Below, in pieces: positions 9,876 through 61,803 of a DNA stretch of 64,000 bases. Each line of letters opens with the position of its first letter. Positions within the stretch are counted from its first letter, which is position 1. The translations under genes and the position numbers were made by a program. The DNA is from a bacterium BMS3Abin06 (GTDB lineage: Bacteria > Nitrospirota > Thermodesulfovibrionia > UBA6902): NCBI GenBank assembly GCA_002897895.1, contig BDSY01000058.1:40109-104108 (forward strand), given 5' to 3'. The notes beneath the pieces are model-generated. The model was given only the letters and a program-made list of their open reading frames with translations, was not told where the DNA came from and made no database searches.

Positions 9876-9926
9876 AAAGAAATTATTGTACATAACAGCT
9901 TTATCAATTGAATGAGGTAAAAAATT

Positions 9927-10943: not shown

Positions 10944-10947
10944 AAGC

Positions 10948-11667
10948 ATGATTGAAATAAAAAATCTTAAAAAGAAATTTTTTTGCAATGGCAGCAATAA
11001 ATCCTTGTTTTCCGGATTTGATTTAGTAATCAGAAAAAGCGAGAAGATTGGACTTTTCGCACCAAATGGAAGTGGAAAAAGCACTCTTTTAAATATTTTA
11101 GCAGGAGTTGATAAAGATTTTGCCGGCACGGTTTCTATAGAAGGGAAACGTATAAGCTATATGCACCAGGACACTAATGCAACCTTAGCTCCCTGGTTTA
11201 CTTGTGAAAAGAATATTTTGCTTGTAAGGAAATATCATCACTTAGGCATTGAAAAAGGGAAAGCTTTACTTAAACGGTTTGTTAATGAAATAGAAATCAA
11301 CTTTTCTTTAGACCAATATCCTTTTATGCTTAGTGGCGGCCAGAGACAAATAGTTGCACTTCTGCGGGCATTGATATTTGAACCGGATGTTTTATTATTG
11401 GATGAGCCTTTCTCTGCTCTTGACATTGAAAAACGAGCTGCTTTTATAGAGTTTTTAACAAAACACTTCACTAATAATCTTACAGTAATAATGTGCTCTC
11501 ATAGAGGGGATGAGGTTAAATCATTGCTTGACAGAGCTGTAATTCTAGAACATCAGTCAGAAACAAGGATTACGATGGATATTTGTCGTTCCAAGTTCCA
11601 CTCTAAACAAGAATTTGAACAGATTATCTCTAAAATCAGATTTAAGAAAAACGGACATGAAATATAA
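10948..11667 (+). CDS. ABC transporter ATP-binding protein (NitT/TauT family)
   Basis: Walker A GSGKST, signature LSGGQRQ, Walker B LLLDEP. Confidence 0.8.
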   Translation: MIEIKNLKKKFFCNGSNKSLFSGFDLVIRKSEKIGLFAPNGSGKSTLLNILAGVDKDFAGTVSIEGKRISYMHQDTNATLAPWFTCEKNILLVRKYHHLGIEKGKALLKRFVNEIEINFSLDQYPFMLSGGQRQIVALLRALIFEPDVLLLDEPFSALDIEKRAAFIEFLTKHFTNNLTVIMCSHRGDEVKSLLDRAVILEHQSETRITMDICRSKFHSKQEFEQIISKIRFKKNGHEI

Positions 11668-12403
11668 GACCTCACTTATAGGGATTTTTTCGGCGGTTAC
11701 TATCTGGCAAATCATTGCCTGGTTAAAAATATTCAATCCAATTTATTTTGCCTCGCCCTATGAAGTAATTGCTGAATCAATCAAAATGATTCAGGGAGGC
11801 GCTGTTTTCATAGACCTTACACTCACTATTTACAGAATAGCTGTCAGTGTTATTATATCCTCACTTATTGGCATACCTCTTGGCATTGCCTTTGGTTATT
11901 TTGCTCGTATCTATAAATATGTCGGCGAAATAGTGGATTTCCTGCGTTCAATCCCGCCAATTGTAATTTATCCATTGCTCCTTATTGTCTTGGGACCCGG
12001 AGATAGTTCAAGAATAGGCGTTGCTCTTTTTGGCTCAATAGTTGTTTTGGTTCTTATTATTTCTAACGGGTTATTTCAACAAGCGCCATTGAGAAGACAA
12101 TATTTTGCATCTCTTGGAGCCAATAAGGTTCAGCTCGTAAACCACATTGTCTGGTATGAAGCGCTGCCTCATGTTATGGTCGCTTTAAGAACAGCAGTAT
12201 CCCTATCCATTATTATTATAGTGGTTACAGAAATGCTTGTTGGCGCACAATATGGTTTGGGGACAAGGGTACAGAACGTTCAAATTACCAGCAACATTCC
12301 CGATTTATTTGTCACTATCATTATTATTGGTTTAATTGGTGTTTTATTTAATAAAACCTTAATCTGTCTTGATAAGAAGCTTGTTTTTTGGAAATCTAAT
12401 TGA
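11657..12403 (+). CDS. ABC transporter permease (binding-protein-dependent inner-membrane component)
   Basis: Hydrophobic throughout. The start is set at the ATG overlapping the ATPase stop. Confidence 0.7.
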   Translation: MKYKTSLIGIFSAVTIWQIIAWLKIFNPIYFASPYEVIAESIKMIQGGAVFIDLTLTIYRIAVSVIISSLIGIPLGIAFGYFARIYKYVGEIVDFLRSIPPIVIYPLLLIVLGPGDSSRIGVALFGSIVVLVLIISNGLFQQAPLRRQYFASLGANKVQLVNHIVWYEALPHVMVALRTAVSLSIIIIVVTEMLVGAQYGLGTRVQNVQITSNIPDLFVTIIIIGLIGVLFNKTLICLDKKLVFWKSN

Positions 12404-12546
12404 TAAATTTATTGTGGAGACTTTCTTATAAAAGTTTGTATGCTTCGCAGAATTTTGCAAAACTCAGAAAGAAAAATTTGCTCTAATTTACATGATATTG
12501 ATGAAAGAGATAAGAAGGGGTAAATAATTTTAATTTCGCTTTGTAT

Positions 12547-12570
12547 TTAAGTATATGCTTATTAACTTAA
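12547..12570 (+). promoter_or_regulatory. Second copy of the operator-like palindrome TTAAGT-N12-ACTTAA
   Basis: TTAAGTATATGCTTATTAACTTAA, about 70 nt upstream of the third peptide gene. Confidence 0.5.
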
Positions 12571-12642
12571 TTACATTAGGGTTATTTTGCTGAGGAGAAG
12601 ACATTTTTTGATGCATAATCCACAGAAAGGAGGTGATAAAAA

Positions 12643-12756
12643 ATGGCTGACAAAAGCAAAAAGAAGTCTTGTGGCTGTGGATGCGATATGCTGAAGCAAT
12701 CTAGCCGCAAAGCCGCAAAAGACGAGAAAGAGTCAAAAGTCATAAGTAAGAAGTAG
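12643..12756 (+). CDS. Cys-Gly-repeat micro-protein (37 aa): MADKSKKKSCGCGCDMLKQSSRKAAKDEKESKVISKK
   Basis: Same SD AAAGGAGGTGA and MAD-K-rich N-terminus plus CGCGC core as 5932..6051. Not in the ORF track. Confidence 0.55.
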   Translation: MADKSKKKSCGCGCDMLKQSSRKAAKDEKESKVISKK

Positions 12757-12854
12757 TCAGACTCGGCCTCACCAAAAGGGGGTAGGTTCAGAAATCGCTT
12801 GCCCCCTTAACTCCAATAATATTCTAATATTACGATTCAATAAAGGAGGAAATA

Positions 12855-13991
12855 ATGAAAAAATTAAATATTGAAGAAATTAGAGAACTATCCGAGAAGC
12901 TTGCATCTGAGAAATTGGCGCCACGTGCCGCAGAGATTGATCAGAACCGTACCTTTCCCTGGGAGAACATTCGAGCACTTGGAGAAGCTGGTTTCCTTGA
13001 GTTGATCATTTCTGAGGACAACGGTGGCTTAGGATTTGGGCGAGTCTGCTTTGCTTCGGTTGCAGAGGAGATAGCTAAGGCCTGCGCTTCCACCGCTCTT
13101 ATATATGTTTCTCACTCAATCGTGACAAAGGCGATAGAACTTGCAGGTAGCGAGGCTGCAAAGAAGAACTGGTTAACTAAAATGTTAACAGGACAATCGC
13201 TTGGAGCGTTCGCTGTCCACGAGCCTGACTCCGGCAGCAACTCCGGAGCCATCACCACATTGGCAAAGAAGGAAGGCGATCACTATATCGTAAATGGTTC
13301 AAAATTTTTCATTACTTCAGCCGGGGAGGCCGACTTCTACCTGGTCCTCGTCAGGACTGACCCGGAAAAGGGGCCTCAGGGTATGAGCACATTGCTCATT
13401 GAAAAAAACACTCCCGGTCTTTCCTTCGGTCAACACGAAGATAAGATGGGTCTGACAAGTACTTCCTCAAGGGAGATGTTTTTCAGCGATTGCCTTGTAC
13501 CGAAGGAAAATCTGATAGGCAATGAAGGTGAGGGAACACAGGTTATTGGGAAAACTGTAGTTGGTTTGGGGTTCTTCGGAGCTGCCGCGATATCTGTCGG
13601 AATCGCAAGATCAGCCACTGAACTTGCAATCAAACATGCCAAGGAAAGAGCCATAGCAGGACAACCCATTGCCGTTCATCAAGCCGTTCAGTTCATGATC
13701 ACGGACATGATTCTTGGGAATGAAGCCGCAGAAGCATTTCTCAAAGTATGTGCTGCAAGAGCTGACTCAACTCAAGGCGCTGCCGTTATTAATGGGTTTA
13801 AGGCTAAGCTTTTAGCCTCTGAGATGGCTGTGGATGTTACAAACAAGGCAATCCAGGTTATGGGTGGTCATGGATACTGCCGGGATTATATAGTTGAAAG
13901 GCTTTTTCGCGACGCCCGGGGATTGACGCTTCACTTCAAAACTTCCGAGTGGCTTCGACAGGATATTGCCAAGGCAGCATTGGGATTGTAA
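12855..13991 (+). CDS. Acyl-CoA dehydrogenase
   Basis: ACAD fold pattern; 378 aa; good SD. Confidence 0.8.
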   Translation: MKKLNIEEIRELSEKLASEKLAPRAAEIDQNRTFPWENIRALGEAGFLELIISEDNGGLGFGRVCFASVAEEIAKACASTALIYVSHSIVTKAIELAGSEAAKKNWLTKMLTGQSLGAFAVHEPDSGSNSGAITTLAKKEGDHYIVNGSKFFITSAGEADFYLVLVRTDPEKGPQGMSTLLIEKNTPGLSFGQHEDKMGLTSTSSREMFFSDCLVPKENLIGNEGEGTQVIGKTVVGLGFFGAAAISVGIARSATELAIKHAKERAIAGQPIAVHQAVQFMITDMILGNEAAEAFLKVCAARADSTQGAAVINGFKAKLLASEMAVDVTNKAIQVMGGHGYCRDYIVERLFRDARGLTLHFKTSEWLRQDIAKAALGL

Positions 13992-14016
13992 AAGCACAGG
14001 CAGGTCAACACACTAT

Positions 14017-14396
14017 CGAGCGGTGAAAGACAGAGGGCATGGCGCTTGCTCAAAAACCCCGGATACTTTTACTTGATGAGCCGATGACCTTTCTGGACAT
14101 TCATCACCAGTTCGAGATAATGGAGTTGTTGCAGAGACTCCAGAAGACTCCAGAAGGGTCTTGACATTACAGTAATCATGGTCATCCATGACCTGAACCA
14201 TGTGGCAAGGTTCAGCCACAGGGTAATTGCGCTGAAACATGGCCGTGTAATCAAGGATGGGTATCCACATGAAGTAATAACCGAGGATATCCTGAGAGAT
14301 GTTTTTGGAGTGAAGGCAAAGGTAATGGTAATGGCATTTAAGGATCATCATAATCGTGATTTCACTTTATGTTTCCCCTGTGGGGTCTGTAAGTAA
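14017..14396 (+). pseudogene. 5'-truncated, frameshifted remnant of a FecE/BtuD-type (iron-siderophore/cobalamin class) ABC ATPase
   Basis: ALAQKPRILLLDEP...LQRLQK then a frame change to ...LDITVIMVIHDLNHVARFSHRVIALKHGRVI. The frameshift coincides with a 10-bp tandem duplication AGACTCCAGA at 14135..14154. Walker A and signature regions are absent. Confidence 0.7.
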
Positions 14397-14411
14397 GCGG
14401 GAAGTGAAAAA

Positions 14412-15254
14412 ATGATCAGGACAGAAAATTTAACAAAGTATTACGGCAGTAAATGCGCTGTCAATTCGGTCTCCTTCAATATCAGGAAAGGAGAAGTCTT
14501 CGCGCTGCTCGGTCCTAACGGGGCCGGTAAGACAACAACCATTAAGATGCTGACCACCCTGAGCAGGCCTACAGAAGGAAAGATATTCATTAATAATCTT
14601 GATGTGGTAGTCGATCAGTTAAAGGTCAAGAGGCTGGTGGCCGTTGTGCCGCAGGTGGGAAACTTTGACAGGGAGCTTTCAGTATATGAAAACATGCTTG
14701 TTTACGGGATGCTTTATGGAGTAAAGGAGCCCGGACCGAAGATAGAAAAAAATCTTGATGCTTTAGGGCTGCTGAAAGAGAGAGATACCATTGCAGAGGT
14801 CCTTTCGGGCGGCATGCAGAGGAGGCTCCTTATTGCAAAAGCGCTCTTATCGGAGCCCGATGTCCTGTTCCTTGATGAACCAACAGTAGGACTTGATCCC
14901 CATGTGAGAAGGGAGATCTGGGACATTATCAGGAACATACGGAACAATGGGAAGACAATTCTGATGACCACCCACTATATCGAAGAGGCAGAGATGCTTT
15001 GTGATAGGATCGGTATCCTGTCTCATGGAAGCCTGATCGCAATAGATACTCCAGGGAACTTGAAGGACAACATAGGCAGATATGTTGTAGAAATTCCATC
15101 ATCCAATGGCAGCGGAAGGACTGAGCGTGTCATATGCAGAGACAGGGCTGAGGCGGAAGAGACCGCCCGAAGGTCTGACAACAGAGTTGTGATCAGGCCT
15201 GCAAATCTGGAAGACGTATTTATTCAACTGACAGGGGAGATGGTCGAGGGATGA
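14412..15254 (+). CDS. ABC-2 type exporter ATP-binding protein
   Basis: GPNGAGKTT, LSGGMQRRL and LFLDEPT motifs. Confidence 0.8.
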   Translation: MIRTENLTKYYGSKCAVNSVSFNIRKGEVFALLGPNGAGKTTTIKMLTTLSRPTEGKIFINNLDVVVDQLKVKRLVAVVPQVGNFDRELSVYENMLVYGMLYGVKEPGPKIEKNLDALGLLKERDTIAEVLSGGMQRRLLIAKALLSEPDVLFLDEPTVGLDPHVRREIWDIIRNIRNNGKTILMTTHYIEEAEMLCDRIGILSHGSLIAIDTPGNLKDNIGRYVVEIPSSNGSGRTERVICRDRAEAEETARRSDNRVVIRPANLEDVFIQLTGEMVEG

Positions 15255-15988
15255 ACTGGTACCCGGTATTTTACAGGGAGATGCTGCTCTTTAAGAAAAA
15301 GCTCTGTAAGCTTGGTTATGTCTTTTCATCTCTATTGTTCCCGGTGCTCTATCTGGTGGCATTTGGCATGGGGCTTGGCAGAAGGGTAAATATTGAGGGA
15401 ACGGGTTATATAGAGTTTCTTATTCCGGGCATAGCCGCCATGACCTCGATGACAAATTCATATAACCTTGTTTCAAACTCTTTAAGTATGGGCAGGCTTT
15501 TTTTTAAGAGCTTTCAGGTTGTTATCCAGTCACCTCTGCCGCATTTCTCGATCATGACAGGAATAGTGTTTTCGGGGATTGTGAAGGGAGCACTTGCATC
15601 TGCAGTTATTGTCCTCGCGGGCTTGATAATATTCAGGGCCTTTCCATTCAGTCTTGTCTCTTTTCTTGGGCTTTTATTAAACCTGATATTGTTCTCCTCT
15701 ATGGGTGTAGTCGCAGGGCTGCTTATAAGGTACCCTGAAGATAATGCTATTTATACCAACTTCTTTATAATGCCGATGGCATTCTTCTCGGGTACATTCT
15801 TTCCTGTAGACAATCTGCCGGCAGCGGTAAAAGGCATAATCATGTTTTTACCGCTGCACTACACCAACATTCTGATAAGAAGCGATGAACTGAGCAAGGA
15901 GGTGATTCTGCCGATATCAGTATTACTTGCAGTTTCGATAACACTATTTTTATGCGGAGCAAAACTGATTAAAAATTACAGTGAATAA
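15251..15988 (+). CDS. ABC-2 type exporter permease
   Basis: Six-TM-like hydrophobic protein; overlaps the ATPase stop by 4 nt. Confidence 0.7.
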   Translation: MNWYPVFYREMLLFKKKLCKLGYVFSSLLFPVLYLVAFGMGLGRRVNIEGTGYIEFLIPGIAAMTSMTNSYNLVSNSLSMGRLFFKSFQVVIQSPLPHFSIMTGIVFSGIVKGALASAVIVLAGLIIFRAFPFSLVSFLGLLLNLILFSSMGVVAGLLIRYPEDNAIYTNFFIMPMAFFSGTFFPVDNLPAAVKGIIMFLPLHYTNILIRSDELSKEVILPISVLLAVSITLFLCGAKLIKNYSE

Positions 15989-16002
15989 TTTCGGGCGTTA
16001 TC

Positions 16003-16271
16003 CCTTTTACCGCCAAACAGGATGAACCCTCCGATACCTTTTCGAACAAGTTCAGAAGCCCGCTCCTGATACTGAATTGAAGAGAGTTTTTCTCCATCAA
16101 GTCTGCTTATGATAAGTTGCCAGAGTTTTTGCTCAAGGCCGGACATAGAACATTATAAACTACTTTACTGCTAAAACTCCTTGAGCCGCAGGGCATCTTT
16201 TAATGCCGGCAACATCCTTTTTACGCAGGCCCGCCCTTCTTCAATGGCTTCTGACGCCCGATCGAATTCGA
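16003..16271. repeat. 269-bp direct repeat, copy 2 (right boundary of island)
   Basis: Identical to 4937..5205. It carries an orphan 5' fragment of the GH3 gene on the minus strand (16003..16146) and supplies the last ~33 codons of the patatin gene. Confidence 0.9.
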
Positions 16272-23387: not shown

Positions 23388-23499
23388 CTGATTGCATAAC
23401 TCTTTAACTCTTTAACTCTTTAACTCTTTAACTCTTTAACTCTTTAACTCTTTAACTCTTTAACTCTTTAACTCTTTAACTCTTTAACTCTTTAACTCC
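23388..23499. repeat. Tandem repeat, about 13-14 copies of an 8-bp unit AACTCTTT
   Basis: Read directly. It sits between psd and pssA and supplies the last codons (..VKELKS) and stop of psd. Confidence 0.8.
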
Positions 23500-24117
23500 C
23501 AGTATCGTTTCACCTGCTGTAACCCTGTCGTTTAATTGTACCTTAATTTCAGTATCTAACGGCAGGTAAATATCCACCCTTGAACTGAACTTGATCATTC
23601 CGTATCTCTCTCCCTGGGAAAGTGATTCTCCGGGCTTTACCCTGCAAACCGCGCGCCTTGCAACAGCGCCCGCTATCTGTTTTACCACAACCGGCCCGTG
23701 ATTATCACAATCAAGAAGCATGGTGATATGTTCATTTAAAATTGAGGCATCGTCTTTAAATGCGGAATAGAACTTGCCGGGGTAATGCTGAACATCTTTG
23801 ACAATGCCGTCACACGGCGCCCTGTTAATATGGACGTTTAACGGCGACATGAAGGTGCTTATCTTCAGTCTGTTCCCGTTTAATATCTCGTCTTCCTTTG
23901 CCTCTGTAATCAGGATAATTTTTCCGTCGGCAGGGGCAATGAATGCGTTCCTGTCAGTGGTTATGACCCTCTCGGGATCTCTGAAAAAATAGAACATGAA
24001 GAGCGTAAGTATCAGCGCAAGCGCAGCCCCCCATCTCAACCCCAGGATTGCTGATATAACAGTGATTGAAGCGAAGAAGATGATAAAAGGATAGCCTTCT
24101 TTAGCAAATTGAAGCAT
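23476..24117 (-). CDS. psd: Phosphatidylserine decarboxylase-related protein (small Psd/Asd type)
   Basis: 213 aa with an N-terminal TM segment, read by eye as a PSD-like fold. Context is psd-pssA. Confidence 0.6.
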   Translation of the reverse strand: MLQFAKEGYPFIIFFASITVISAILGLRWGAALALILTLFMFYFFRDPERVITTDRNAFIAPADGKIILITEAKEDEILNGNRLKISTFMSPLNVHINRAPCDGIVKDVQHYPGKFYSAFKDDASILNEHITMLLDCDNHGPVVVKQIAGAVARRAVCRVKPGESLSQGERYGMIKFSSRVDIYLPLDTEIKVQLNDRVTAGETILGVKELKS

Positions 24118-34946: not shown

Positions 34947-35100
34947 TAATTAGTGTCTGTGTATAAATTGCTATTTTATTCCTGTCATGCCCGAAGTCTT
35001 TAATCGGGCATCCAGAACTCATTAGAAAAGACTGGATTCCGGCTTAAGGACTGCCGGAATGACAGACAGGCACATTGAGTTTATACACAGACACTAATTA
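34947..35100. mobile_element. MITE-like element, copy 1 (154 bp, perfect 21-bp terminal inverted repeats TAATTAGTGTCTGTGTATAAA)
   Basis: TIRs read directly. An internal secondary inverted repeat is present. A second copy lies at 44476..44630. Confidence 0.65.
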
Positions 35101-35140
35101 GTTAAGAGAGATAAATTTTTATGGAAAGGGGGGTTCGACT

Positions 35141-35488
35141 ATGAGATTATTACTCGTGCTGTTAAGTTTGCTTGTCTTCGTGATGGCTGGATGTACTACT
35201 ACTTATGTGATGAAATCCGGGGACAAGATGCTGCTGGAAAATGCAATAAATGCAGCAAAAGATGCAAAGTCTTCTGCTGAAGATGCGTCCTCTGCTGCAA
35301 GTAATGCATCAATGAAAGCAGACAAGGCGGAAAGAGCTGCTAACAGAGCGGAAGGCGCAGCTGACAGAGCTGGAAATGCGGCAGACAGAGCGGAAAGGGC
35401 TGCAAACAGAGCGGAGCGCGCGGCTGATGATGCTGCATCAGCGGCTGAAAAGTCTGTCAAGGCATTTGAAATGAAACAGATGAAATAA
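35141..35488 (+). CDS. Lpp-like alanine-rich coiled-coil lipoprotein
   Basis: Signal peptide plus lipobox (VMAGC), then repeated AERAANRAE heptad-like units. Confidence 0.6.
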   Translation: MRLLLVLLSLLVFVMAGCTTTYVMKSGDKMLLENAINAAKDAKSSAEDASSAASNASMKADKAERAANRAEGAADRAGNAADRAERAANRAERAADDAASAAEKSVKAFEMKQMK

Positions 35489-36931: not shown

Positions 36932-37230
36932 TAAGAGCTTTGGTTGAAATACTTATTACAAATAACATAGCTGTCGATAAAATAATATTGTACGGTTCTT
37001 ACGCCACCGGCAGACCTCGTAACCATTCAGACATAGACATAGCAGTGATTTCACCTTCTTTTAACGGGAAGAAAATTCTGGAAATTCAGGAAGAACTTGC
37101 AAAGGCATTTTCAAAATATCTGTCAATAATAGAACCTGTTGGATATTCATCAGAAGATTTCCGGGCTGCTGAACCGGAGACCCTGCTCGGTGAAATTAAG
37201 AAGGCAGGAAAGATACTGTATGCTGCTTGA
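36889..37230 (+). CDS. Minimal nucleotidyltransferase (MNT) domain protein
   Basis: LYGSYATG....SDIDIAV (GSx9-13DxD); overlaps the HEPN gene by 43 nt. Confidence 0.7.
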   Translation: MVKAKYTTTEIKKIVRALVEILITNNIAVDKIILYGSYATGRPRNHSDIDIAVISPSFNGKKILEIQEELAKAFSKYLSIIEPVGYSSEDFRAAEPETLLGEIKKAGKILYAA

Positions 37231-37269
37231 AAAGCAGACAACCATAAGATGCTGATGGATGCATCAGAT

Positions 37270-37592
37270 ATAGACATACTGTATCTGCAATGCAGAGTCA
37301 AATTTGGCAGCGAATTGCTGATAATGACTCGCACAAAGTGTTGATTTCTAATTGACAAACATGCTTGCCATGATATATAAAATGATACTGCTGATTCACC
37401 AAAACCAAAATAAGCTCCAATTTCCCTTAATGGAGAGCCATTAAATCTATGGCTTGCATATATCGTCACCTTTTTCGCAATTGATTCATCGTAAAAAAGA
37501 TTCGTCACCTTTTTATATATTGACTCAATATTTTCAACTTTTCTGATCTCTCTCATTGCAGGAAAATCTCTGTCCTTGTTTTTCAGATTCAT
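37270..37592 (-). CDS. Hypothetical HTH protein with a DnaA domain-IV-like segment (possibly truncated)
   Basis: ...LREIGAYFGFGESAVS... resembles the DnaA C-terminal HTH. The upstream ORF-track extension overlaps the MNT gene, so only the N-terminal ~107 codons are called. Confidence 0.25.
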
Positions 37593-37722
37593 GTTCTATG
37601 GTTATTTGGGCAACAACCCGTAAAGATGCGACACCACAAAGAGAGAAAGAAGATTTTTCAGTGGCTTAATGCATTAAGCAGTTGTTAAGATATGCAAAAA
37701 ATAATAATGGAAATGAGAGGGG

Positions 37723-37840
37723 ACAGAACACTGAAAGGACAATTTCAGCAGCCTGTCAGGGGCTGATCCCGTTCAGTCTCCGTTGGATATTATGTTGATA
37801 TTTGAAATGGTTCTTATAGCATGCATTCTCGTCGCAGGTA
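37723..37840. repeat. 118-bp direct repeat copy A (diverged duplicate of the promoter and 5' end of the gene at 38500)
   Basis: 111/118 identical to 38440..38557. Encodes a truncated MDIMLIFEMVLIACILVAG... Confidence 0.8.
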
Positions 37841-37915
37841 CTCGTCAGACGTTTAGCCTTAAGGAATAAATGTTGAAACAATCTGATACTATTACTGATA
37901 TAATGATAAAATAAT

Positions 37916-38158
37916 ATGAAAGCAACAGAATATTTCAAATACATTCGAAAAAGGCCGGATAGGAGTATTATTAAAGATGAATGGATTGAGAAGGTTATCA
38001 ACTATCCATTGAAAGAGGAAATTCAATCAGATGGAAGAATCAGGAGATGGGCAAAAATAGAAGAAATGGACGGAAGAGCATTGAGGGTTATATTGTTAAG
38101 TGATGGAGAAACTGTTCATAATACATTTTTCGATAGATCATTCAAGGAGGATCGATAA
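37916..38158 (+). CDS. DUF4258-like small protein (putative toxin)
   Basis: 80 aa with a ...GRALRVILLSDGETVHNTFFDR tail. Confidence 0.45.
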   Translation: MKATEYFKYIRKRPDRSIIKDEWIEKVINYPLKEEIQSDGRIRRWAKIEEMDGRALRVILLSDGETVHNTFFDRSFKEDR

Positions 38159-38365
38159 ATGAAAATAAAATATTTTTCCGATACAGATACGGCATTATTG
38201 GAATTTTCTGAGAATGAAGTATACGAAACAAAAGAAATAAATGAAAATATATACATTGACCTGGGCAAGGATGGCAAGTTAATAAGTATGACAATAGAAC
38301 ACGCTAAAGAGCAGGCAACAATAAAAGAGTTCTCCTATCAGGAAATTGAGAAAGAAATTGCATGA
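38159..38365 (+). CDS. DUF2283-like small protein (putative antitoxin)
   Basis: MKIKYFSDTDTALLEFSENEV... has a typical DUF2283 start. Its start abuts the previous stop. Confidence 0.5.
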   Translation: MKIKYFSDTDTALLEFSENEVYETKEINENIYIDLGKDGKLISMTIEHAKEQATIKEFSYQEIEKEIA

Positions 38366-38439
38366 CTGGATAACAAGACAGTTGTTATCTTCCCAATTAA
38401 ACCAACTCAAAGAATAATCCAATCGTCAGTGGGGGCGCC

Positions 38440-38557
38440 ACAGAACACTGAAAGGACAATTTCAACAGCCTGTCAAGGGCTGATCCCGTTCAGTCTCCCT
38501 TGGATATTATGTTAATATTTGAAATCGTTCTTATAGCTTGCATCCTCGTCGCAGGTA
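38440..38557. repeat. 118-bp direct repeat copy B (native 5' region of the methyltransferase gene)
   Basis: See copy A. Confidence 0.8.
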
Positions 38558-39069
38558 TGCTTATTGTGTTGACATCGATGAAAACCGGCATTTCTCCTTC
38601 CCCGAGTTCAAGCAAGACTGTCCGGGCAATGATGGCAACTATGGAAGATTCAGGAGCAGGACCTATCGTGGACCTGGGGTCCGGGTGGGGAACACTCGTT
38701 ATCGCATTCGCCGGAAAGTACCCGCAGCGACAGGTGATTGGTTATGAATTATCACTGGTTCCATGGTTATTCTCATCGATTCGCAAGTCTGTCTCGCGAT
38801 TGAACAATCTGACCCTGTATCGCAAAGATTTCCGGAATGCCGACCTCTCTCATGCATCTGTCCTCACATGTTACCTGTTCCCCGGGGGCATGGTTTCTCT
38901 TAAGGAAAAACTGGAACGCGACAAGATAACAGAAGTCCTCATTGTGAGCAGCACATTTGCACTGCCATCATCAGAGCCAACCAGGGTTATTCGGGTAAAG
39001 GACATGTACAGAACTCCGATTTATCTGTATCATCAAAGCCGGAGGGCCGTGTGTGGTCAATCTTTATAA
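38500..39069 (+). CDS. Small membrane-anchored class I SAM-dependent methyltransferase
   Basis: N-terminal TM helix and motif I VDLGSGWGT. Confidence 0.55.
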   Translation: MDIMLIFEIVLIACILVAGMLIVLTSMKTGISPSPSSSKTVRAMMATMEDSGAGPIVDLGSGWGTLVIAFAGKYPQRQVIGYELSLVPWLFSSIRKSVSRLNNLTLYRKDFRNADLSHASVLTCYLFPGGMVSLKEKLERDKITEVLIVSSTFALPSSEPTRVIRVKDMYRTPIYLYHQSRRAVCGQSL

Positions 39070-39267
39070 TTGACAAAAATAAAATGCTCTGACTTAGTTT
39101 CAAAACAGCGGCATACAGAAAACATGGTCTGCGCCACAATAAGTAATGCGCAATATTTCTGAAACCAATTCTTGCATTTGAGTATCAACACTCGCTTGTG
39201 CAAGGATGAGTTGTTTTTCCCTTCTGAAAATGGTAGTATTTATTCATACCGGCAAGGAGGCTTTTCA

Positions 39268-42967: not shown

Positions 42968-43147
42968 TTGACACACTGTTTTTGAAGCAGTATACTTAAA
43001 ACTTACCTGGGGGAGGCGATGCCTGAGAGTCCCGGCTATTCGGGAGACCCCTTGAACCTGAACTGGTTAATGCCAGCGGAGGAAAGGATAAATAGCACCT
43101 TATACCGTATTCCCGCAGGTAGTTACCATAAGGGAATACGGTTTTTT
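42968..43147 (+). ncRNA. Promoter (TTGACA-17-TATACT) plus TPP (THI-box) riboswitch with terminator expression platform
   Basis: CTGAGA, ACCC and TTGAACCTGAACTGGTTAATGCCAGCGGAGG THI-box core. An 11-bp perfect hairpin ACCGTATTCCC/GGGAATACGGT with a T-run lies at 43104..43147. Confidence 0.8.
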
Positions 43148-43159
43148 ATTTGGAGAAAA

Positions 43160-44476
43160 ATGGATCAAAAAGAACTCACGAAATCCGATGCATTATATAT
43201 CAGGGATATCCTTGCGAAATCTCTTGATATGCAATCATTGAACCTTACCGAGGTCTCGGCGCTTTTAGAAGTAAGCGACAGGTACCTGTGGTCGGAGATA
43301 TTTGATGCTGCACGCAGTGTAAAGGAAAAGGTTTATGGAAAAAGGATCGTGCTCTTTGCCCCGCTCTATCTGTCAAACGAGTGCATGAATGACTGTTTGT
43401 ATTGTGGTTTCAGAAAGGGCAACACGGATGCAAAGAGAAAAACGCTTACTGTAAATGAAGCGCTCGAAGAGGCGGCCCTGCTTGCAGGCAGGGGATATAA
43501 AAGGCTTCTGCTTGTTTCGAGTGAACATCCAAAACGTGCGGGTATTGATTATTTTGAAAAAATTACAGATGCAATTTATAAGAAAACGGATATTCGGATC
43601 CTGCACGTAAACTCCGCCCCTATGAGCGTGGATGATTTTAAAAGGCTCAAGGCCTCGGGTGTTGGTGTATATCAGTGCTTCCAGGAGACATATCACATGC
43701 CGACTTACAGGTTTATGCATCCGACAGGGTCTAAATCGGATTATGCATGGCGTCTGGGAGTAATGGACAGGGCAATAGAAGCCGGCTTTGAGGATGTGGG
43801 AATGGGCGTGCTGCTTGGCCTTTATGACTGGCGCTGGGATGTGGCTGCATTGATTGCCCATTGCCGGAGGCTTATTAATAAATACGGATTCGGCCCTCAC
43901 ACCCTCTCTGTTCCGAGATTGCAGCCGGCACAGGGTTCTAAGGCGGATAATTTACGGTACAGGGTTTCGGACGATGACCTCAAAAAAATAGTCGCTATTT
44001 ACAGGCTGGCCCTGCCTTATGTCGGCGTTGTTGTTTCTACGAGAGAGCCGTCCGGACTCAGGGATGAACTGTTTTCATCAGGTGCGTCGCAGGTGTCGGC
44101 GGGGTCAAAGACGAGCCCGTGGGGCTATATGAAGGACGGTGATACCGAACAGTTTGAGATTGGAGACAGCAGGAGTCTTGAAGAGGTCATAGGGAAGATT
44201 GCAAGCCTTGGACTCATGCCGAGTCTCTGCACAGCCTGTTACAGGGAAGGCAGGAGCGGAGAGCGGTTTAAGAATCTTGCGGAGGAGACAACTATTAAAA
44301 ACTTCTGTCATGAAAATGCCCTCTTGTCTCTCAAAGAATACGTGGAAGATTGTGCATCAGGTGAAGTGAAAAAAGAATTAACAAAAATATTGAATGAAGA
44401 AATCGCTAAAAGCCGGAACGGTCTTGCTGAAAAGTTTAAACTTATTGAGGCTGGTAAGAGGGATATGCATGTATGA
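43160..44476 (+). CDS. thiH: ThiH/HydG-family tyrosine-lyase radical SAM enzyme (thiazole biosynthesis context; HydG-like C-terminal CX2CX22C)
   Basis: CMNDCLYC rSAM motif. C-terminal CTAC-22 residues-C. Sits behind the TPP riboswitch and ahead of thiSGEC. The start is reset to the ATG after the riboswitch. Confidence 0.65.
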   Translation: MDQKELTKSDALYIRDILAKSLDMQSLNLTEVSALLEVSDRYLWSEIFDAARSVKEKVYGKRIVLFAPLYLSNECMNDCLYCGFRKGNTDAKRKTLTVNEALEEAALLAGRGYKRLLLVSSEHPKRAGIDYFEKITDAIYKKTDIRILHVNSAPMSVDDFKRLKASGVGVYQCFQETYHMPTYRFMHPTGSKSDYAWRLGVMDRAIEAGFEDVGMGVLLGLYDWRWDVAALIAHCRRLINKYGFGPHTLSVPRLQPAQGSKADNLRYRVSDDDLKKIVAIYRLALPYVGVVVSTREPSGLRDELFSSGASQVSAGSKTSPWGYMKDGDTEQFEIGDSRSLEEVIGKIASLGLMPSLCTACYREGRSGERFKNLAEETTIKNFCHENALLSLKEYVEDCASGEVKKELTKILNEEIAKSRNGLAEKFKLIEAGKRDMHV

Positions 44477-44630
44477 ATTTAGAGTCTGTGTATAAATAAC
44501 GCAAATGCTCAAAAGCATGTCATTCCCGCAAGCGAAGCGAGTCGGGAATCCTTCTTAAAGAAACGATTCCGGACAAGCCGGAATGACAGAAAAACGACAA
44601 CTGTTAGACTTTATACACAGACACTAATTA
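44476..44630. mobile_element. MITE-like element, copy 2 (155 bp; right TIR identical to copy 1, left TIR 18/21)
   Basis: TTTATACACAGACACTAATTA at 44610..44630, in the thiH-thiS intergenic region. Confidence 0.6.
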
Positions 44631-44646
44631 AGGGCGAGACTTAAAA

Positions 44647-54910: not shown

Positions 54911-57019
54911 ATGGATATTTTCAGCCTTTCTTCTCTATCGGCATTTGTGATATGTGAATTATTGGCCGGGTTTGTTTATTTAAAAAATCCGAAGAATAAA
55001 ATAAACATATCGTTTGCGGTTGTAACGTTTCTTATCGGAATATGGCCACTTTTCCCATATGCAACGTGGGTATCCCGTTCCAGGGAAGAAGCCCTTCTTT
55101 TTACAAGACTTGTTTATATTGCGGTTATTTTAATGCCGCCGGCTTTTTTGTTTTTTGTTTATAACCTGACTGATATCTATAGTATTAAAAAAGAAAGAAA
55201 CAGGCTGCCATTATTTTATCTGATTTCCGCTGCTTTCCTGTTTAATTCTTTTAATCCGAATTTCATAAAAAATGTTCAGCCCTTTGGTTTAAGTTTTGCC
55301 GTTGTTCCGGGAATAATGTACCATCTGTTTTCCCTGTTTTTTGCAATAGCGATTGTTTTGGGCTATATAAAGATTTTTATCAGATACAAAGAAGTGACGG
55401 GTTTTAAAAAGAAGCAGCTTTTTTACATATTAATTGCGTTTGTTACAGCAGGCATTGCCGTCTTTATTCATTTCCTTTCGGCATACGGGGTTGAAGTGAT
55501 GTATCCCCATGAACTCCTTGTTATTTTATTTGCAGCTCTGGTTTTATATTCTATTGTCAGGTACAGGGCAATGGATGTTAATATTGCATTTAAAAAAAGG
55601 ATGGCCTACTCCCTTTCCGTTGGTCTCCTGACCGGTTTATTTATTGTTTTCGTTCTTGCTGTCACAAATCTGTTTTCAACTTTCATAAAAATACATTCGT
55701 TTCAGATCAGTATAGTTGCGGCCTTTTTAATTGCCCTCCTTTTTAATCCATTCAGAAACAGGATTTATGCCCTGATTGACAAAGTTTTTTATAAAAAGTC
55801 TTATGATTATTATGCCACCATACAGCAGGTCAGCTCTACACTTACTTCAATGTTCAATTTGCAGGAGATATTCCAGTTTACAGGGAAAATAATTTATGAA
55901 GTGATGGGATTGAAAAGCATTTATCTGCTGTCTGCTAAAACAGGTGGTGGTTATGAAGTTGTTTACCATACGTCTAAAAAGATCAAAAGGGGAAAAAATG
56001 AAACGCAACATCCTGACACTAAAGAGAGTATAAGGATAGGCAATCGATCGGGGATAGTCAGGTTTTGCAGGAAATCAGGAGATATTATTATTAAGGATGA
56101 GCTGCCGGCAATCGAAGCAACCCTTGAACGGGATATGATTGGAAAAATTAAAGATGATCTTGAACTTTTTCATGCTGAAGCGGTAGTTCCGGTAATTGTT
56201 GACAGCAGATTGTCGGTTTTAATCGTGCTGGGAGAAAAATTATCATGCGATATATTTACCGGTGAAGATATTAACCTGCTTAATACGATTTCCGATCAAA
56301 CGGCCATTGCTATAAAAAATGCCCGACTTTATAAAGACAAGGTTCATTCCGAGTGGCTTGCATCCATCGGAATGATGTCGGCGACTTTTGCACATGAGAT
56401 CAGAAACCCTCTGACCTCGCTTAAAACTTTTGCGCAGCTGATGCCTGAGAAGTATAATGACGCTGAATTCAGGAATACATTTTCAAAGATTGTTGAAGGC
56501 GAGATAGAGAAAATAGACGGACTGATTGGCGATCTCCTTGATTTTTCTACAGAGAAGAGGTCTTCCCGTGTTAACAATTTCAATCTTGTATCATTAGTAG
56601 ATGAGACAGTTGATTATGTCAGGGAAAAACTGGAACGGGAGGAAAAGAAAATTGCTATCAGAAAAACATACAACGAAGATGAAATATATATGTCTGGTGA
56701 TGCAACTAAGCTGAAACAAACTTTTATCAACATATTAACTAACGGTTGCCAGGCAATGCATGGAGAAGGTGTATTAACAGTTAAAATTAAACCTAATGGT
56801 AAATACATTGATGTGGCAGTTGCGGATACGGGAGAAGGTATTGATACCGATGATATTTTAAAGGTTTTCGACCCCTTTGTCACATCCAAGGATATGGGAT
56901 TAGGTCTCGGGCTTGCTATCAGCAAGAGAATTGTAGAAGACCATAAGGGGCGAATAAATGTTAAGAGTAAATTATCAAAAGGATCGACATTTACAGTTTC
57001 ATTGCCTGTACAGAATTAA
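54911..57019 (+). CDS. Membrane sensor histidine kinase (multi-TM sensor, GAF, HisKA, HATPase_c)
   Basis: FAHEIRNPLTSL H-box and G-box DTGEGI...GLGLGLAIS. Confidence 0.8.
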   Translation: MDIFSLSSLSAFVICELLAGFVYLKNPKNKINISFAVVTFLIGIWPLFPYATWVSRSREEALLFTRLVYIAVILMPPAFLFFVYNLTDIYSIKKERNRLPLFYLISAAFLFNSFNPNFIKNVQPFGLSFAVVPGIMYHLFSLFFAIAIVLGYIKIFIRYKEVTGFKKKQLFYILIAFVTAGIAVFIHFLSAYGVEVMYPHELLVILFAALVLYSIVRYRAMDVNIAFKKRMAYSLSVGLLTGLFIVFVLAVTNLFSTFIKIHSFQISIVAAFLIALLFNPFRNRIYALIDKVFYKKSYDYYATIQQVSSTLTSMFNLQEIFQFTGKIIYEVMGLKSIYLLSAKTGGGYEVVYHTSKKIKRGKNETQHPDTKESIRIGNRSGIVRFCRKSGDIIIKDELPAIEATLERDMIGKIKDDLELFHAEAVVPVIVDSRLSVLIVLGEKLSCDIFTGEDINLLNTISDQTAIAIKNARLYKDKVHSEWLASIGMMSATFAHEIRNPLTSLKTFAQLMPEKYNDAEFRNTFSKIVEGEIEKIDGLIGDLLDFSTEKRSSRVNNFNLVSLVDETVDYVREKLEREEKKIAIRKTYNEDEIYMSGDATKLKQTFINILTNGCQAMHGEGVLTVKIKPNGKYIDVAVADTGEGIDTDDILKVFDPFVTSKDMGLGLGLAISKRIVEDHKGRINVKSKLSKGSTFTVSLPVQN

Positions 57020-57229
57020 TAAATAAATATATAATAAAGAAGCTGTAATAGTTCACTTTCCTGTCATTTCGGCGGAAGGGATAGAATCTCTTTATGTTGG
57101 GATTTAAGATTCCTTGCTTCATTCGGAATTACAGTTCAGGCAGCAATTTCGATATGGTCTGAACAATTGCAATTTCTGCAAATTATCATAGTAGGTTATT
57201 ACTTAATTATTTTGACGGCAATATAGTCT

Positions 57230-59269
57230 ATGGAACTTATCGCATTATTGAGTAATAGTGATGATCTGATTATCCCGGATGTAAAGGATGCACTCAGGAA
57301 GTACACAGTGTATCCGTTGAAGACATTAGAAGAACTTGAGGACCTGTACGGCAATATCCCCCTGAATCTCTTCCTTATTGATACGACCTCCCAGAGGTTG
57401 TCTTCTCTCTGTGATTTCTTAAACAAACTCGATCAAAATGTGGTCATGCTAATTGCACCTGAAAAACTTGACAGGTTTAAAATGGATAATCTCCCGCAGA
57501 GCGTGTTTGATTCCATTGATATCGGGTCAATAAGAACCGGTCTTCCGGTTATAGTTGAACGTGCTCTCGAAAGGCAGAGGTTTGGAAATGAAATAAAGTT
57601 ACTGAAGCAATCGCGGGATATTGTATCGCCGGTGCAGATGAAGGCTTATAACGGATTAGAGACGGAAACATTTTTAAACCGCAGTGAACCTGTGCCGGGC
57701 GGCAGATATATCCATGAAAAGGTTATTGTTAATTTTGCCAGAATGTTGTCGGTAAGTTTTGACATGCGGAAGCTTTTAGATCATTTTATAGATTCTGTAA
57801 TGGAGATTGCCCGCGTAAGCAGGATGTCTATTATGCTCAGGGATAAAGAAGGCTTTTATGTCAAGACGCACTATGGCATAGATCCATATATTGCTGATAA
57901 TCTTAAACTCCGGAAAGAGAGCTCTCTTGCAAGCCGGCTGACAAGAACAGGGCGGATCATGCAAAAGCCGGCCGGTTTTACAGGTGCGGATACAGCATGC
58001 ATTAAAGCCGAAATGGAAGCACTGCAGTGCTCGGTTTCATTTCCCATGATATACAAGGGCAAGCTGATAGGGATCTTTAATATCGACGATAAAATCACTG
58101 AAGAGCCTTTTTACAGGGAGGAACTGGAGATAATATACATATTATGCAATTATCTTGCGGCTGCTGTAAAGGATATAGACCTCTATCATCAAATGTGGTA
58201 TCAGAAGGAGTTTACAAAGAACATACTTTCAAGTATGAGCAGCGGAATGATCGCAATAGACTGCGATGAAAAAATCACCATTTTTAATCAGCAGGCATCG
58301 GAGATACTGAACCTTGATCCTTCAGAAATAATCGGCAGTGATTTAAGGGCGCTCCCCCCGCCGCTCGGAGATATATTATATGAAACCATGGCAACCGGCA
58401 TTTCTTACAGCCGGTATGAGGTTACAATAAATCCTGCGAAACTGCCGCTTGGAATAAACAGTTACAGGCTGCTTGACGAACAGAAAAATCCGGTAGGAGC
58501 GGGGATTTTATTTTCCGACCTCTCTGATTCCAGGAAGTTGGAGGAGCAGCAAAGGAGGGCGGAGAACCTCAAAGCCGTAAATGACCTTATGGCAAAGATA
58601 GCCCATGAGGTGAGGAATCCTTTAACTTCAATACAGATATATACACAGTTATTGAATGACAAATATAACGATGATGAATTAAACAAATTTTATATTTCAA
58701 CTGTAAGGCAATCAATCAACACGCTTGACAGTTTGATTGATAAACTGGTGACTTTTTCAAGCACTCAAAACTATAATTTTAACAAGGTGGAATTAAACGG
58801 CTTTTTAAGAGAGACCGAAGAGTTCATATTGAAGGATATGCCTCAGACCCACCGGTTTTCAAGGCAGCTGCTGCATAATTCTTTTTATATTAATGCCGAT
58901 AGAAAACAGATGACAAAGGCGATTTACTATATTATATTATTTATTATCGACAAAACACCTGAAGGAGCGGTTATTACTATGGATCTTGACACAATAATGC
59001 AGGATACCCCTTTTATTGAGATATCGATAAAATATGCCGGAGATATATCTATTAAGGATGGGAAGCAGAACCTGTTAAAACCCCTGCTGGATATCGGTCA
59101 TCTCGGAACCGAGTTGAATGTGCCGATAAGCCATAAGATTATTGAAGGGCACAGCGGAAGTCTTGATATGAAAAGCGAGGGCGGCATTAATACCTTTATC
59201 ATCAGGCTGCCGCTTGTTGACAGGAGAAGCTCTAATGTTTTCTTTGTGCGAGGTCATTTAAATGGATAA
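57230..59269 (+). CDS. Cytoplasmic sensor histidine kinase (receiver-like N-terminus, GAF, PAS, HisKA, degenerate ATPase)
   Basis: IAHEVRNPLTSI H-box and a PAS-like segment. Confidence 0.7.
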   Translation: MELIALLSNSDDLIIPDVKDALRKYTVYPLKTLEELEDLYGNIPLNLFLIDTTSQRLSSLCDFLNKLDQNVVMLIAPEKLDRFKMDNLPQSVFDSIDIGSIRTGLPVIVERALERQRFGNEIKLLKQSRDIVSPVQMKAYNGLETETFLNRSEPVPGGRYIHEKVIVNFARMLSVSFDMRKLLDHFIDSVMEIARVSRMSIMLRDKEGFYVKTHYGIDPYIADNLKLRKESSLASRLTRTGRIMQKPAGFTGADTACIKAEMEALQCSVSFPMIYKGKLIGIFNIDDKITEEPFYREELEIIYILCNYLAAAVKDIDLYHQMWYQKEFTKNILSSMSSGMIAIDCDEKITIFNQQASEILNLDPSEIIGSDLRALPPPLGDILYETMATGISYSRYEVTINPAKLPLGINSYRLLDEQKNPVGAGILFSDLSDSRKLEEQQRRAENLKAVNDLMAKIAHEVRNPLTSIQIYTQLLNDKYNDDELNKFYISTVRQSINTLDSLIDKLVTFSSTQNYNFNKVELNGFLRETEEFILKDMPQTHRFSRQLLHNSFYINADRKQMTKAIYYIILFIIDKTPEGAVITMDLDTIMQDTPFIEISIKYAGDISIKDGKQNLLKPLLDIGHLGTELNVPISHKIIEGHSGSLDMKSEGGINTFIIRLPLVDRRSSNVFFVRGHLNG

Positions 59270-60284
59270 CAGGGAAAGAATTCTTGTTATAGATGATGAG
59301 CTGGCGCCCAGGGAATCCATCCGGATGATTTTGAAGGATCAATATGCCGTATCTACGGCTGAAGGGGCGCTTGAAGGGTTGGATATTATGAGCCGGAATC
59401 CTGTAAACCTGGTAGTAATGGATATAAAGATGCCGAAAATGGATGGTATCACGGCACTGCAGGAGATAAAGAAAAGACATCCCGACACCGAGGTTATTCT
59501 GTTAACGGCATATGCCAGTCTTGAAACAGCCAGGGATGCGATACGGTTTGGCGCTTTTGATTATTTGATAAAGCCTTTTGATAAAGACAATGTATTATCT
59601 GTTGTCGGGAAAGGACTGGCTAAAAGGCGGGCTAACACAGGTTTGAGATTAGAGCGTGATATCTTGTTAGACAGGGCCTCCTATCTTGAAGAGCAGGTAA
59701 ATAATGCCAGGAGTAATATCATGACGTGCTATGAAGGCACGGTTAATGCGCTGATTCTTACTATTGATGCCAAAGACCATTATACATATGATCACTCAAA
59801 CCGGGTTGCAAAATTATCTTCTTCTTTAGCAAAGGCGTTCGGGGTCCCTGACAGAACAGTAAAAGAGATAGAGAATGCAGCCTCTATCCATGATATAGGG
59901 AAGATCGGCATAGAAGAAAATATTCTCAAGAAAAACGGAAAGTTGACTTCATACGAATATACGGAAATAAAAAAACATCCTGCGATAGGCGCCCGGATTG
60001 TTCAGTCCGTGCCCTTTCTTGAGGACGCAATTCCGGTCATTCTTTATCATCATGAAAGGTTTGATGGAAAGGGATATCCCGAGGGCAGAGAAGGTGAACA
60101 GATACCTCTCGCAGCGAGAATAGTAGTTGTTGCAGATGCTATTGATGCAATGATGAGCGCCAGGCCTTATAGAGATGCGCTCACCATAAACAGAGTTTTA
60201 GACGAATTAAGAGATAATACCGGAACCCAGTTTGATCCCGGGATTGTGGATGTTATATTGAAAGGCAAAGTACCGTTCGAATAA
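59262..60284 (+). CDS. Response regulator with HD-GYP phosphodiesterase domain (RpfG-like)
   Basis: REC domain with D54-like aspartate; HD...HHERFDGKGYP. Confidence 0.8.
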   Translation: MDNRERILVIDDELAPRESIRMILKDQYAVSTAEGALEGLDIMSRNPVNLVVMDIKMPKMDGITALQEIKKRHPDTEVILLTAYASLETARDAIRFGAFDYLIKPFDKDNVLSVVGKGLAKRRANTGLRLERDILLDRASYLEEQVNNARSNIMTCYEGTVNALILTIDAKDHYTYDHSNRVAKLSSSLAKAFGVPDRTVKEIENAASIHDIGKIGIEENILKKNGKLTSYEYTEIKKHPAIGARIVQSVPFLEDAIPVILYHHERFDGKGYPEGREGEQIPLAARIVVVADAIDAMMSARPYRDALTINRVLDELRDNTGTQFDPGIVDVILKGKVPFE

Positions 60285-60479: not shown

Positions 60480-60529
60480 TCTTGTCTTTTACGGTCACGT
60501 TAAACGGACACGTCCCACGATCCTTTCCA

Positions 60530-61675
60530 GTCGCAATCCCTTATTTATCAGGTCTTCTTTGATTCAAAGCAAACACAAACAGATACTGAACGCATAGTCG
60601 CAATCCCTTTTTCATCAGGTCTTCTTTGATTCTGTTTCACTGGGCAAATTAGGATTAATGCTTGCCGTCGCAATCCCTTTTTCATCAGGTCTTCTTTGAT
60701 TCTACCTGGCTGCAAAAAAGCCCTCCTTAATCCGATGTCGCAATCCCTTTTTCATCAGGTCTTCTTTGATTCACAGTCCTGAAGAATAACTGTAAAGCAA
60801 GTCGTCGCAATCCCTTTTTCATCAGGTCTTCTTTGATTCACCCTGCAGGAGGATGGGACATATCAGATATGGGAGTCGCAATCCCTTTTTCATCAGGTCT
60901 TCTTTGATTCAATGAAAAAGAGTGAACCCGTGAAGTGGCATTCAGTCGCAATCCCTTTTTCATCAGGTCTTCTTTGATTCATTATTTTTTTCTTATTTGA
61001 ATTACTAACTTTGTCGCAATCCCTTTTTCATCAGGTCTTCTTTGATTCGATTTTAAAATGTGCAATTACATATTAAGCGGCATGTCGCAATCCCTTTTTC
61101 ATCAGGTCTTCTTTGATTCCAAGATTGGAGCTTAGCCTCGCAGAACGTAAGAGTCGCAATCCCTTTTTCATCAGGTCTTCTTTGATTCTTTAAGGGCTAT
61201 CGGCTTGTGGTAGGCCACTGTGTCGCAATCCCTTTTTCATCAGGTCTTCTTTGATTCACTGTTGCTCTCCATGCTATGCAAGATTTTCTGGGTCGCAATC
61301 CCTTTTTCATCAGGTCTTCTTTGATTCAATTAATGTTGTTGGGAAACATCCAGCGCTGAGTCGCAATCCCTTTTTCATCAGGTCTTCTTTGATTCTCAAA
61401 AACAGGTCAAATACCTTTTGTCAAATACTCGTCGCAATCCCTTTTTCATCAGGTCTTCTTTGATTCCTTTCATTTCCTTTAATTACACTGCAAATTCACC
61501 AGTCGCAATCCCTTTTTCATCAGGTCTTCTTTGATTCTGTGCCTCATTCACAGAGGTACCTCTTTTGATCCGTCGCAATCCCTTTTTCATCAGGTCTTCT
61601 TTGATTCGTGAATACGGTGCCAAACGTGGTAAAAGATTAGTCGCAATCCCTTTTTCATCAGGTCTTCTTTGATTC
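60530..61675 (-). CRISPR. CRISPR array with 17 repeats of 36 nt (GTCGCAATCCCTTTTTCATCAGGTCTTCTTTGATTC on the plus strand) and 16 spacers of 31-35 nt
   Basis: Repeats start at 60530 (degenerate, 2 mismatches), 60597, 60667, 60736, 60804, 60875, 60945, 61013, 61084, 61153, 61222, 61292, 61360, 61431, 61502, 61572 and 61640. An AT-rich leader at 61676..61803 lies next to cas2. The degenerate repeat is distal. Transcription is inferred on the minus strand, so crRNA repeats would end ...GGGATTGCGAC. Confidence 0.9.
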
Positions 61676-61803
61676 AGCACCCCTCAAAAATAATTTGTGA
61701 AATCCAGCTATTACAGCGCCCATTGAGCAGCTTTTCTTTCTTACTGAAAGCAACCTGTTTTTGCCTCCCTTTTTTGAATTTTGAATCTTCGGAGCAGAGA
61801 CTT

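Follow-up and report, generated by a model that had tools for sequence, protein, structure and literature searches.

How two small genes of toxin–antitoxin (TA) character came to lie between two copies of the start of a methyltransferase gene is the question raised by this locus, which belongs to the 64,000-nucleotide stretch of DNA analyzed here (the window). To our knowledge, the entry of solitary TA cassettes and of islands without recombinases into chromosomes is poorly documented. The window offers two clean examples, this locus and an 11-kb island, for which one environmental population supplies both filled and empty sites and the junctions are resolved to the base pair. We compared the window with 29 loci (L001–L029). 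The reading that we tentatively prefer, while giving it somewhat less than an even chance, is that the structure is derived and arose through duplicative rearrangement, without a recombinase, at the start of the methyltransferase gene, with a TA module that would have been resident locally.

Structure of the Locus

The following features were distinguished (coordinates are those of the window; R is the repeat, present as copies A and B; U1 and U2 are upstream segments):

37371–37592, minus strand: U1, remnant of a small DnaA_C-like HTH gene (weak Bac_DnaA_C match, E = 0.079)
37578–37637: 60-bp segment of the window-type allele, missing from L006, L017, and L010
37638–37722, plus strand: U2, native upstream region, contiguous by alignment with the single R of the uninterrupted locus
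37723–37840, plus strand: copy A of the 118-bp repeat, orphan (69 nt of upstream sequence and the first 16 methyltransferase codons)
37792–37869, plus strand: truncated ORF of 25 codons (MLIFEMVLIACILVAGTRQTFSLKE, then a stop), 16 methyltransferase codons fused to insert sequence
37841–37856: left junction segment of 16 nt, not common to other copies of the TA module
37857–37915, plus strand: upstream region of the TA module, common to L021, L022, and L029 in unrelated contexts
37916–38158, plus strand: toxin-like protein of 80 aa with a predicted BECR fold (RelE/BrnT/CdiA-CT/colicin D), no Pfam family
38159–38365, plus strand: DUF2283 protein (PF10049), presumed antitoxin partner
38366–38437, plus strand: tail d, 72 nt, with the hairpin GATAACAA-N5-TTGTTATC, common to L006 only (70/72)
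38438–38439: right junction filler CC; counted from GGGG, a clean GGGGAC join is exceeded by 5 nt (GCGCC)
38440–38557, plus strand: copy B of the repeat, functional, running into the methyltransferase gene without interruption (two private changes, both synonymous)
38509–39069, plus strand: class I SAM-dependent methyltransferase of 186 aa with an N-terminal TM helix (several weak methyltransferase Pfam matches)

Pairwise alignment of 37723–37840 with 38440–38557 gave 111 identical positions of 118, with 7 mismatches and no gaps, in agreement with the initial annotation of this DNA, which had described a 118-bp duplication of 94% identity. A repeat search in the 64-kb window recovered a two-copy direct-repeat family with a spacing of 717 bp, corresponding to copies A and B; a 30-nt core of R had 2 matches only in the window, where shuffled sequence would give 0. 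Copy A encodes a truncated peptide of 25 codons, as had been noted. It carries one non-synonymous change (I to M), which, set beside the synonymous private changes of copy B, fits a functional B and an orphan A.

Such a structural variant does exist and is well resolved, and a matching empty site was found (see below). The two-copy structure was 100% identical in nine contigs (L001–L005 and L007–L010) from different samples and assemblers, and contig DRFC01000017.1 of GCA_011050745.1, a MAG annotated as Nitrospirae, has the same sequence as the window. An artefact, either an assembly error or copies drawn from a repeat family unrelated to the insert, could be suspected because the contigs are metagenome-assembled, but we consider it extremely improbable. 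The nine contigs are concordant, and the 7 differing sites rule out collapse or mis-threading of the copies; as A and B differ at least every 22 nt, assembly collapse is excluded. No extra copies of R were detected in the window, the 29 loci, JGI metagenomes (a single chance 22-mer match), viral contigs, plasmids, or phages, and related loci contained either one copy or two. The annotation had named membership in a dispersed repeat family as the outcome that would overturn it; as far as searched, R occurs at one locus only.

Searching the methyltransferase yielded 691 homologues at E ≤ 1e-10. Its N-terminal helix (MLIIEIILIA...) was kept in relatives down to about 81% amino acid identity, and also in L013, L015, and L018–L020, relatives without other synteny. 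Since the helix is conserved in these non-syntenic relatives, copy B represents the native 5′ end of the gene, as first proposed. The exact start had to be revised: it had been placed at the TTG codon at 38500, with about 20 codons inside the repeat, but L006 has TGG at this codon, and the start picked by gene callers is ATG 38509, which is most likely the true one. Copy B therefore consists of 69 nt of upstream sequence, 16 codons, and 1 nt.

A structured RNA or riboswitch in R was considered and rejected: no Rfam match was found in the region 37200–39200, and R had neither a convincing hairpin nor a significant fold (z from −0.3 to −2.4).

The Inserted Block

The insert between the copies is 599 bp long and consists of 16 nt, the TA module with its promoter, the 72-nt tail d, and 2–5 nt of filler. 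A promoter scan identified one promoter-like site in 37857–37915 (CTGATA-18-TAAAAT with a TG extension), upstream of both genes; the stop of the 80-aa gene ends at 38158 and DUF2283 starts at 38159, so that the two genes abut directly. The DUF2283 protein matched PF10049 over its full length (60 bits against a cut-off of 23, E = 2.5e-16).

The 80-aa protein is a member of a large family with about 75% identity across phyla; it matched no Pfam family either at E ≤ 0.01 or at E ≤ 10, and the DUF4258 HMM was unmatched. Precomputed Pfam domains were absent from its homologues, NCBIfam and PADLOC models gave no meaningful match, and a PDB sequence profile search returned noise only. Its fold is nevertheless predicted to be that of a RelE/BrnT-type toxin. 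The label "DUF4258/DUF2283 pair" given earlier is thus correct in its second half; the first half finds no HMM match, while a toxin-type fold is predicted. DUF4258 (PF14076) is listed as a family of the RelE/ParE superfamily (PMC11980606), so that "toxin-antitoxin-like" is a fair description, and the TA-like nature of the cargo is supported at the level of the predicted fold. The pair resembles type II TA systems of the RelE/ParE (BECR-fold) kind in having two small abutting genes with their own promoter and in being conserved across phyla in unrelated contexts. It differs from such systems, including those with DUF4258, in that the 80-aa protein matches no Pfam, NCBIfam, or PADLOC model.

The pair of 80 and 68 aa was also found in the unrelated neighborhoods L021–L024 and L028, and L029 carries a version of 79 and 75 aa. 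The DNA homology of these module copies to the window starts at 37857–37860, including the promoter-like site, and stops at the DUF2283 stop codon (about 20 nt further in L028). Tail d lies outside the general TA module.

In L024, a Nitrospinota contig rich in TA genes, a partial second copy of the 80-aa toxin-like gene (91 nt, 89% identical) was observed at positions 1241–1331, 2.7 kb upstream of the complete pair.

The Uninterrupted Locus

The annotation had suggested looking for the uninterrupted locus in relatives; it was found in L006 (ERZ1742238) and in L017, which comes from another sample. Both have the order U-R-methyltransferase with a single R and are about 95% identical to the window, and L017 is 99.8% identical to L006 (to the right). 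Their homology to the window covers 37381–37577, 37638–37840, and then 38440–39038, overlapping both window copies over exactly 118 bp. Relative to this locus, the window shows the insertion with target duplication that had been described.

The more distant relatives L013, L015, and L018–L020 also have one R copy. They have only the methyltransferase gene in common with the window and therefore inform on the single-copy ancestral state and on nothing concerning the insert. At the informative sites, R of L006 follows B, A, B, A, B and has private changes in addition. The empty site of L006 as a deletion product of A and B was rejected, as it would need four crossovers plus the private changes. 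With a single R in the relatives and a non-hybrid R in L006, sequence comparison indicates that one copy is ancestral and that the two-copy structure is derived.

U1 is native to the sequence upstream of the methyltransferase gene: an intact version of 87 aa is present at L006 610–873, and the 3′ end of U1 in the window is cut at about 37377. The counterparts of U2 (L006 895–979 and L017 263–347) are about 94–95% identical and lead directly into R and the methyltransferase gene. On the left, three different contexts meet within about 14 nt (window ~37377, L006 ~687, and L017 ~55): HEPN/MNT cassettes in the window, HicBA-DUF2283 in L006, and another context in L017. This pattern indicates that cassettes have been replaced repeatedly at the ~37377 breakpoint and that the edge turns over quickly.

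The right-hand side of the gene also varies. The homology between the methyltransferase genes of the window and L006 stops at 39038, about 30 nt short of the stop codon, and each allele has a different C-terminal tail (window 39038–39171, L006 1578–1640). Past the tail, a TA pair follows in both, RHH/PIN in the window and BrnT/BrnA in L006, and both allele tails start near the promoter-like motif TATAATTGACAA. In L018, a relative with about 92% identity, a MITE-like inverted-repeat element (GTCATTCTGAGGA...TTCAGAATGAC) was observed at 240–400, between an RNase D-like gene and the methyltransferase start, in the same upstream position as the rearrangement of the window lineage.

The 11-kb Island and Mobile-Element Hallmarks

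The second example in the window has the same geometry on a larger scale:

5206–15999: metabolic island of 10.8 kb, between 272-bp repeats

The repeats (4934–5205 and 16000–16271) are direct, perfect, and 100% identical. Each spans the boundary between a patatin-like gene, of which it includes the last 101 nt, and a GH3 gene, of which it includes the first 147 nt, together with the intergenic spacer. The island encodes ArsR, ThiS, a B12-radical SAM enzyme, aldehyde:ferredoxin oxidoreductase, ABC transporters, and acyl-CoA dehydrogenase; a recombinase, integrase, or transposase was not found in it. A precise empty site with one copy exists in L027, which comes from a co-occurring strain; its flanks are identical to those in the window over at least 4 kb on each side. 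The earlier remark that the architecture of the small insertion matches that of the large island is borne out by this shared geometry and by the empty site. The identity of the 272-bp copies means that L027 may just as well have arisen by excision, and in the 272-bp case the assembler might conceivably have threaded a free circle into the chromosome.

Around the small insert, gene tables and Pfam revealed no integrase, transposase, or recombinase genes within about 10 kb on each side. There were no terminal inverted repeats at 37841/38439 and no tRNA in the window. A transposon or IS was rejected since there is no transposase and no terminal inverted repeat, and the duplication measures 118 bp rather than 2–15 bp. 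An integrase-mediated island or prophage remnant was rejected as well, with no tyrosine or serine recombinase and no core reused between the sites, and so was an integron cassette (no intI in the gene tables; no convincing hairpin in R). The neighboring TA pairs, HEPN/MNT and RHH/PIN, are not bordered by R or by any common repeat. Islands that carry an integrase and insert at the ends of tRNA or protein genes are similar to our locus in that copies of the gene end flank the acquired DNA and the gene is not disrupted. The differences are that no integrase lies in or near either insert, that the repeats have no common core, and that the small insert is short (599 bp).

The 118-bp and 272-bp repeats have no core in common (the longest common word is 6 nt, against 7–9 by chance), and all four junctions of the two events show 0–2 nt of microhomology. 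Both observations argue against a site-specific enzyme and for sequence-independent processes. The first bears directly on a recombinase acting in trans, encoded elsewhere in the genome, with R as a long attachment site, in the manner of a cis-mobilizable element. Such an enzyme would account for long imperfect direct repeats, an insert without a recombinase, and empty sites, and would match the H47 island (PMC3191183, PMC5426353). We regard it as very improbable: besides the missing common motif, no tRNA or other typical target is present, R is known from this locus only and has no significant structure or Rfam match, and R of the L006 empty site is not a hybrid of A and B.

The H47 genomic island of Escherichia coli (microcin H47) nevertheless appears to be the nearest described analogue. 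It is recombinase-less and flanked by long imperfect direct repeats, with empty sites in other strains and RecA-independent excision (PMC3191183, PMC5426353). The small insert is likewise integrase-free, with long imperfect direct repeats and empty sites in other strains; mobility independent of island-encoded functions would be a further likeness. Experiments have demonstrated excision of H47, and its empty sites are hybrids between the repeats, unlike the L006 allele. Moreover, the repeat here is the 5′ end of a host gene and not a dispersed attachment sequence.

A staggered break was also considered, in which opposite-strand nicks 118 or 272 bp apart would be joined to linear DNA and filled in, giving a very long target-site duplication. 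The 0–2 nt of microhomology at the four junctions, the fillers of the small event (16 nt and 2–5 nt), which look like end joining, and the two repeats without a common core are in line with it. Copies made by fill-in start identical, however, and 6% divergence needs a long time, yet DUF2283 and d are only 3% from L006. Bacterial end joining is not known to produce such long duplications, and this origin is quite improbable.

Divergence of the Copies and Recombination between Alleles

The lower identity of the 118-bp copies had been taken to show that the small insertion is older than the island. This reading is unsafe. Copies A and B and R of L006 differ pairwise at 7, 8, and 7 sites in a star pattern, so that the three are practically equidistant. 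L010 is a mosaic: its U is of the L006 type (8 of 8 diagnostic sites, without 37578–37637), its R_A-TA-R_B is of the window type, and the switch point lies between 37697 and 37747. The allele types thus recombine within one population. The star pattern and the mosaic together make any inference of age unreliable, and the 6% difference between A and B may stem from two parental alleles rather than from elapsed time. Judging by these comparisons, the duplication would be either as old as the split of the alleles or a junction of two alleles; an inter-strain event would fit equally. Homologous recombination would now be shuffling the resulting alleles within the population.

Origin of the Two-Copy Structure

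The evidence for a local origin comes from L006, where a DUF2283 gene with tail d lies upstream of U, 383 bp before R. Compared with the window, this DUF2283 gene has 6 differences in 207 nt and none in amino acids, and d has 2 in 72 nt, which corresponds to about 97% identity. It is preceded by HicB/HicA-like genes and not by the 80-aa gene. As d is outside the general module, its presence in both L006 and the window points to common descent, and its position near R in L006 suggests a local rearrangement rather than a foreign capture. The order TA-d-s-U-R in L006 and the order U-R-TA-d(-R) in the window can be read as two linearizations of one circle or tandem unit. Within L006 1–1700, GGGGAC occurs only twice, once where d ends and once where U meets R, and these are the places joined in the window (P ~0.014).

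According to the local rearrangement that we favor, the TA module would already have resided a few hundred bases upstream, as DUF2283-d-s-U-R-gene does in L006. A unit of about 1.4 kb, [TA-d-s-U-R], would have been duplicated in tandem or, by an equivalent route, excised as a circle and re-integrated through a single crossover in R. The inner s-U would then have been deleted near the GGGGAC microhomology, joining d to copy B, and other cassettes (HEPN/MNT) would later have taken the place of the left-hand TA copy. In this case, the long repeat on either side would be a product of the rearrangement, not a recognition site. In the window, copy B retains an intact ribosome-binding region and the first 16 codons, and copy A is an orphan with the 25-aa stub. 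The location at a gene start may be a survivorship effect, as the gene stays functional only if the event restores an intact 5′ end.

Several observations weigh against the local rearrangement. No second TA copy was found left of U in the window, so that an extra replacement step must be assumed. L017 has no DUF2283-d-s at the place where L006 has it; hence, the order seen in L006 is itself polymorphic and perhaps not the ancestral one. The junction of d with R_B contains 5 nt more than a clean GGGGAC join, and the 16 nt at the left junction are not accounted for. Neither a full tandem copy nor a circle junction was found among the related loci compared. In addition, local duplication cannot cover both events in the window, since the 11-kb island is clearly foreign to its site.

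A Campbell-type capture would cover both. A circularized fragment derived from another strain and carrying the TA module next to its own R would enter by one homologous crossover in the recipient R and yield R-insert-R at once, with non-identical copies; the 11-kb island would have entered likewise via its 272-bp segment. Both events show the predicted geometry, each with an empty site. The two R copies and the L006 allele are all about equally far apart, which an origin of the copies in different strains would predict; L010 demonstrates homologous recombination between alleles here that are about 5% diverged; and recombinase genes are absent. Still, this capture needs a donor in which TA-d abuts R, and none was found; the SNPs do not reveal a single crossover point (derived sites 26, 87, and 105 in A; 75 and 99 in B). 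The DUF2283-d of L006, 383 bp upstream, would stay unexplained unless the donor itself arose in that way, in which case the capture merges with the local model. On this balance, capture is a possible but rather unlikely origin. The homology-mediated integration proposed initially stays among several mechanisms that give this geometry and is unproven, with 0–2 nt of microhomology and no common core.

As a class, Campbell-type insertion-duplications and remodeled tandem duplications resemble the locus in many respects: direct target repeats flank the block, the junction gene is regenerated intact, relatives have a one-copy empty site, and no dedicated recombinase is involved. The locus departs from them in the 6% divergence of its copies and in the short fillers at both junctions.

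Significance

No new molecular system is revealed here; it is the footprint that is of interest. An insertion can be accompanied by a long duplication that preserves the neighboring gene, and the alleles so formed are then shuffled by homologous recombination. The locus is thus a useful worked example for the population genomics of flexible genomic islands. A broader proposal, which we consider unlikely, is that the TA cassettes and the 11-kb island of this uncultured Nitrospirota population spread by one recombinase-independent route, in which host recombination integrates a circularized or tandem intermediate and gene-start duplications of 100–300 bp are left behind. If true, this would mean a general, sequence-independent movement of "immobile" cassettes, readable directly from genomes.

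Other Features of the Window

The whole TA-rich stretch, from a YkuD gene to the thiamine genes, is bracketed by two copies of a 39-nt repeat (35077–35115 and 44607–44645; 79% identity) with an exact core of 21 nt, TTTATACACAGACACTAATTA. At 42999–43101, ahead of the thiamine biosynthesis genes, a TPP riboswitch was identified (RF00059, 66 bits); it overlaps the 5′ part of the listed ORF 43019–44476, the true start of which is probably later.

An intergenic segment of 81 nt located 3′ of the aconitase gene (34983–35063) is 88% identical to L013 3830–3910. L013 represents a different genus, and almost nothing else in it aligns with the window at the DNA level. The segment could be a conserved non-coding element; it had no Rfam match at the gathering score and contained no tRNA. 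Close to it, a 115-aa ORF (35141–35488) contains a 21-nt periodic repeat (35318–35443), which at the protein level gives 7-residue repeats with a high content of A, D/N, R, and E.

Between two minus-strand ORFs, at 23397–23500, the octamer TAACTCTT is repeated about 13 times in tandem. A CRISPR-like array with 17 copies of a 36-nt repeat (GTCGCAATCCCTTTTTCATCAGGTCTTCTTTGATTC) and a period of about 70 nt occupies 60524–61692; the large ORFs upstream of it (54911–60284) may be cas genes.
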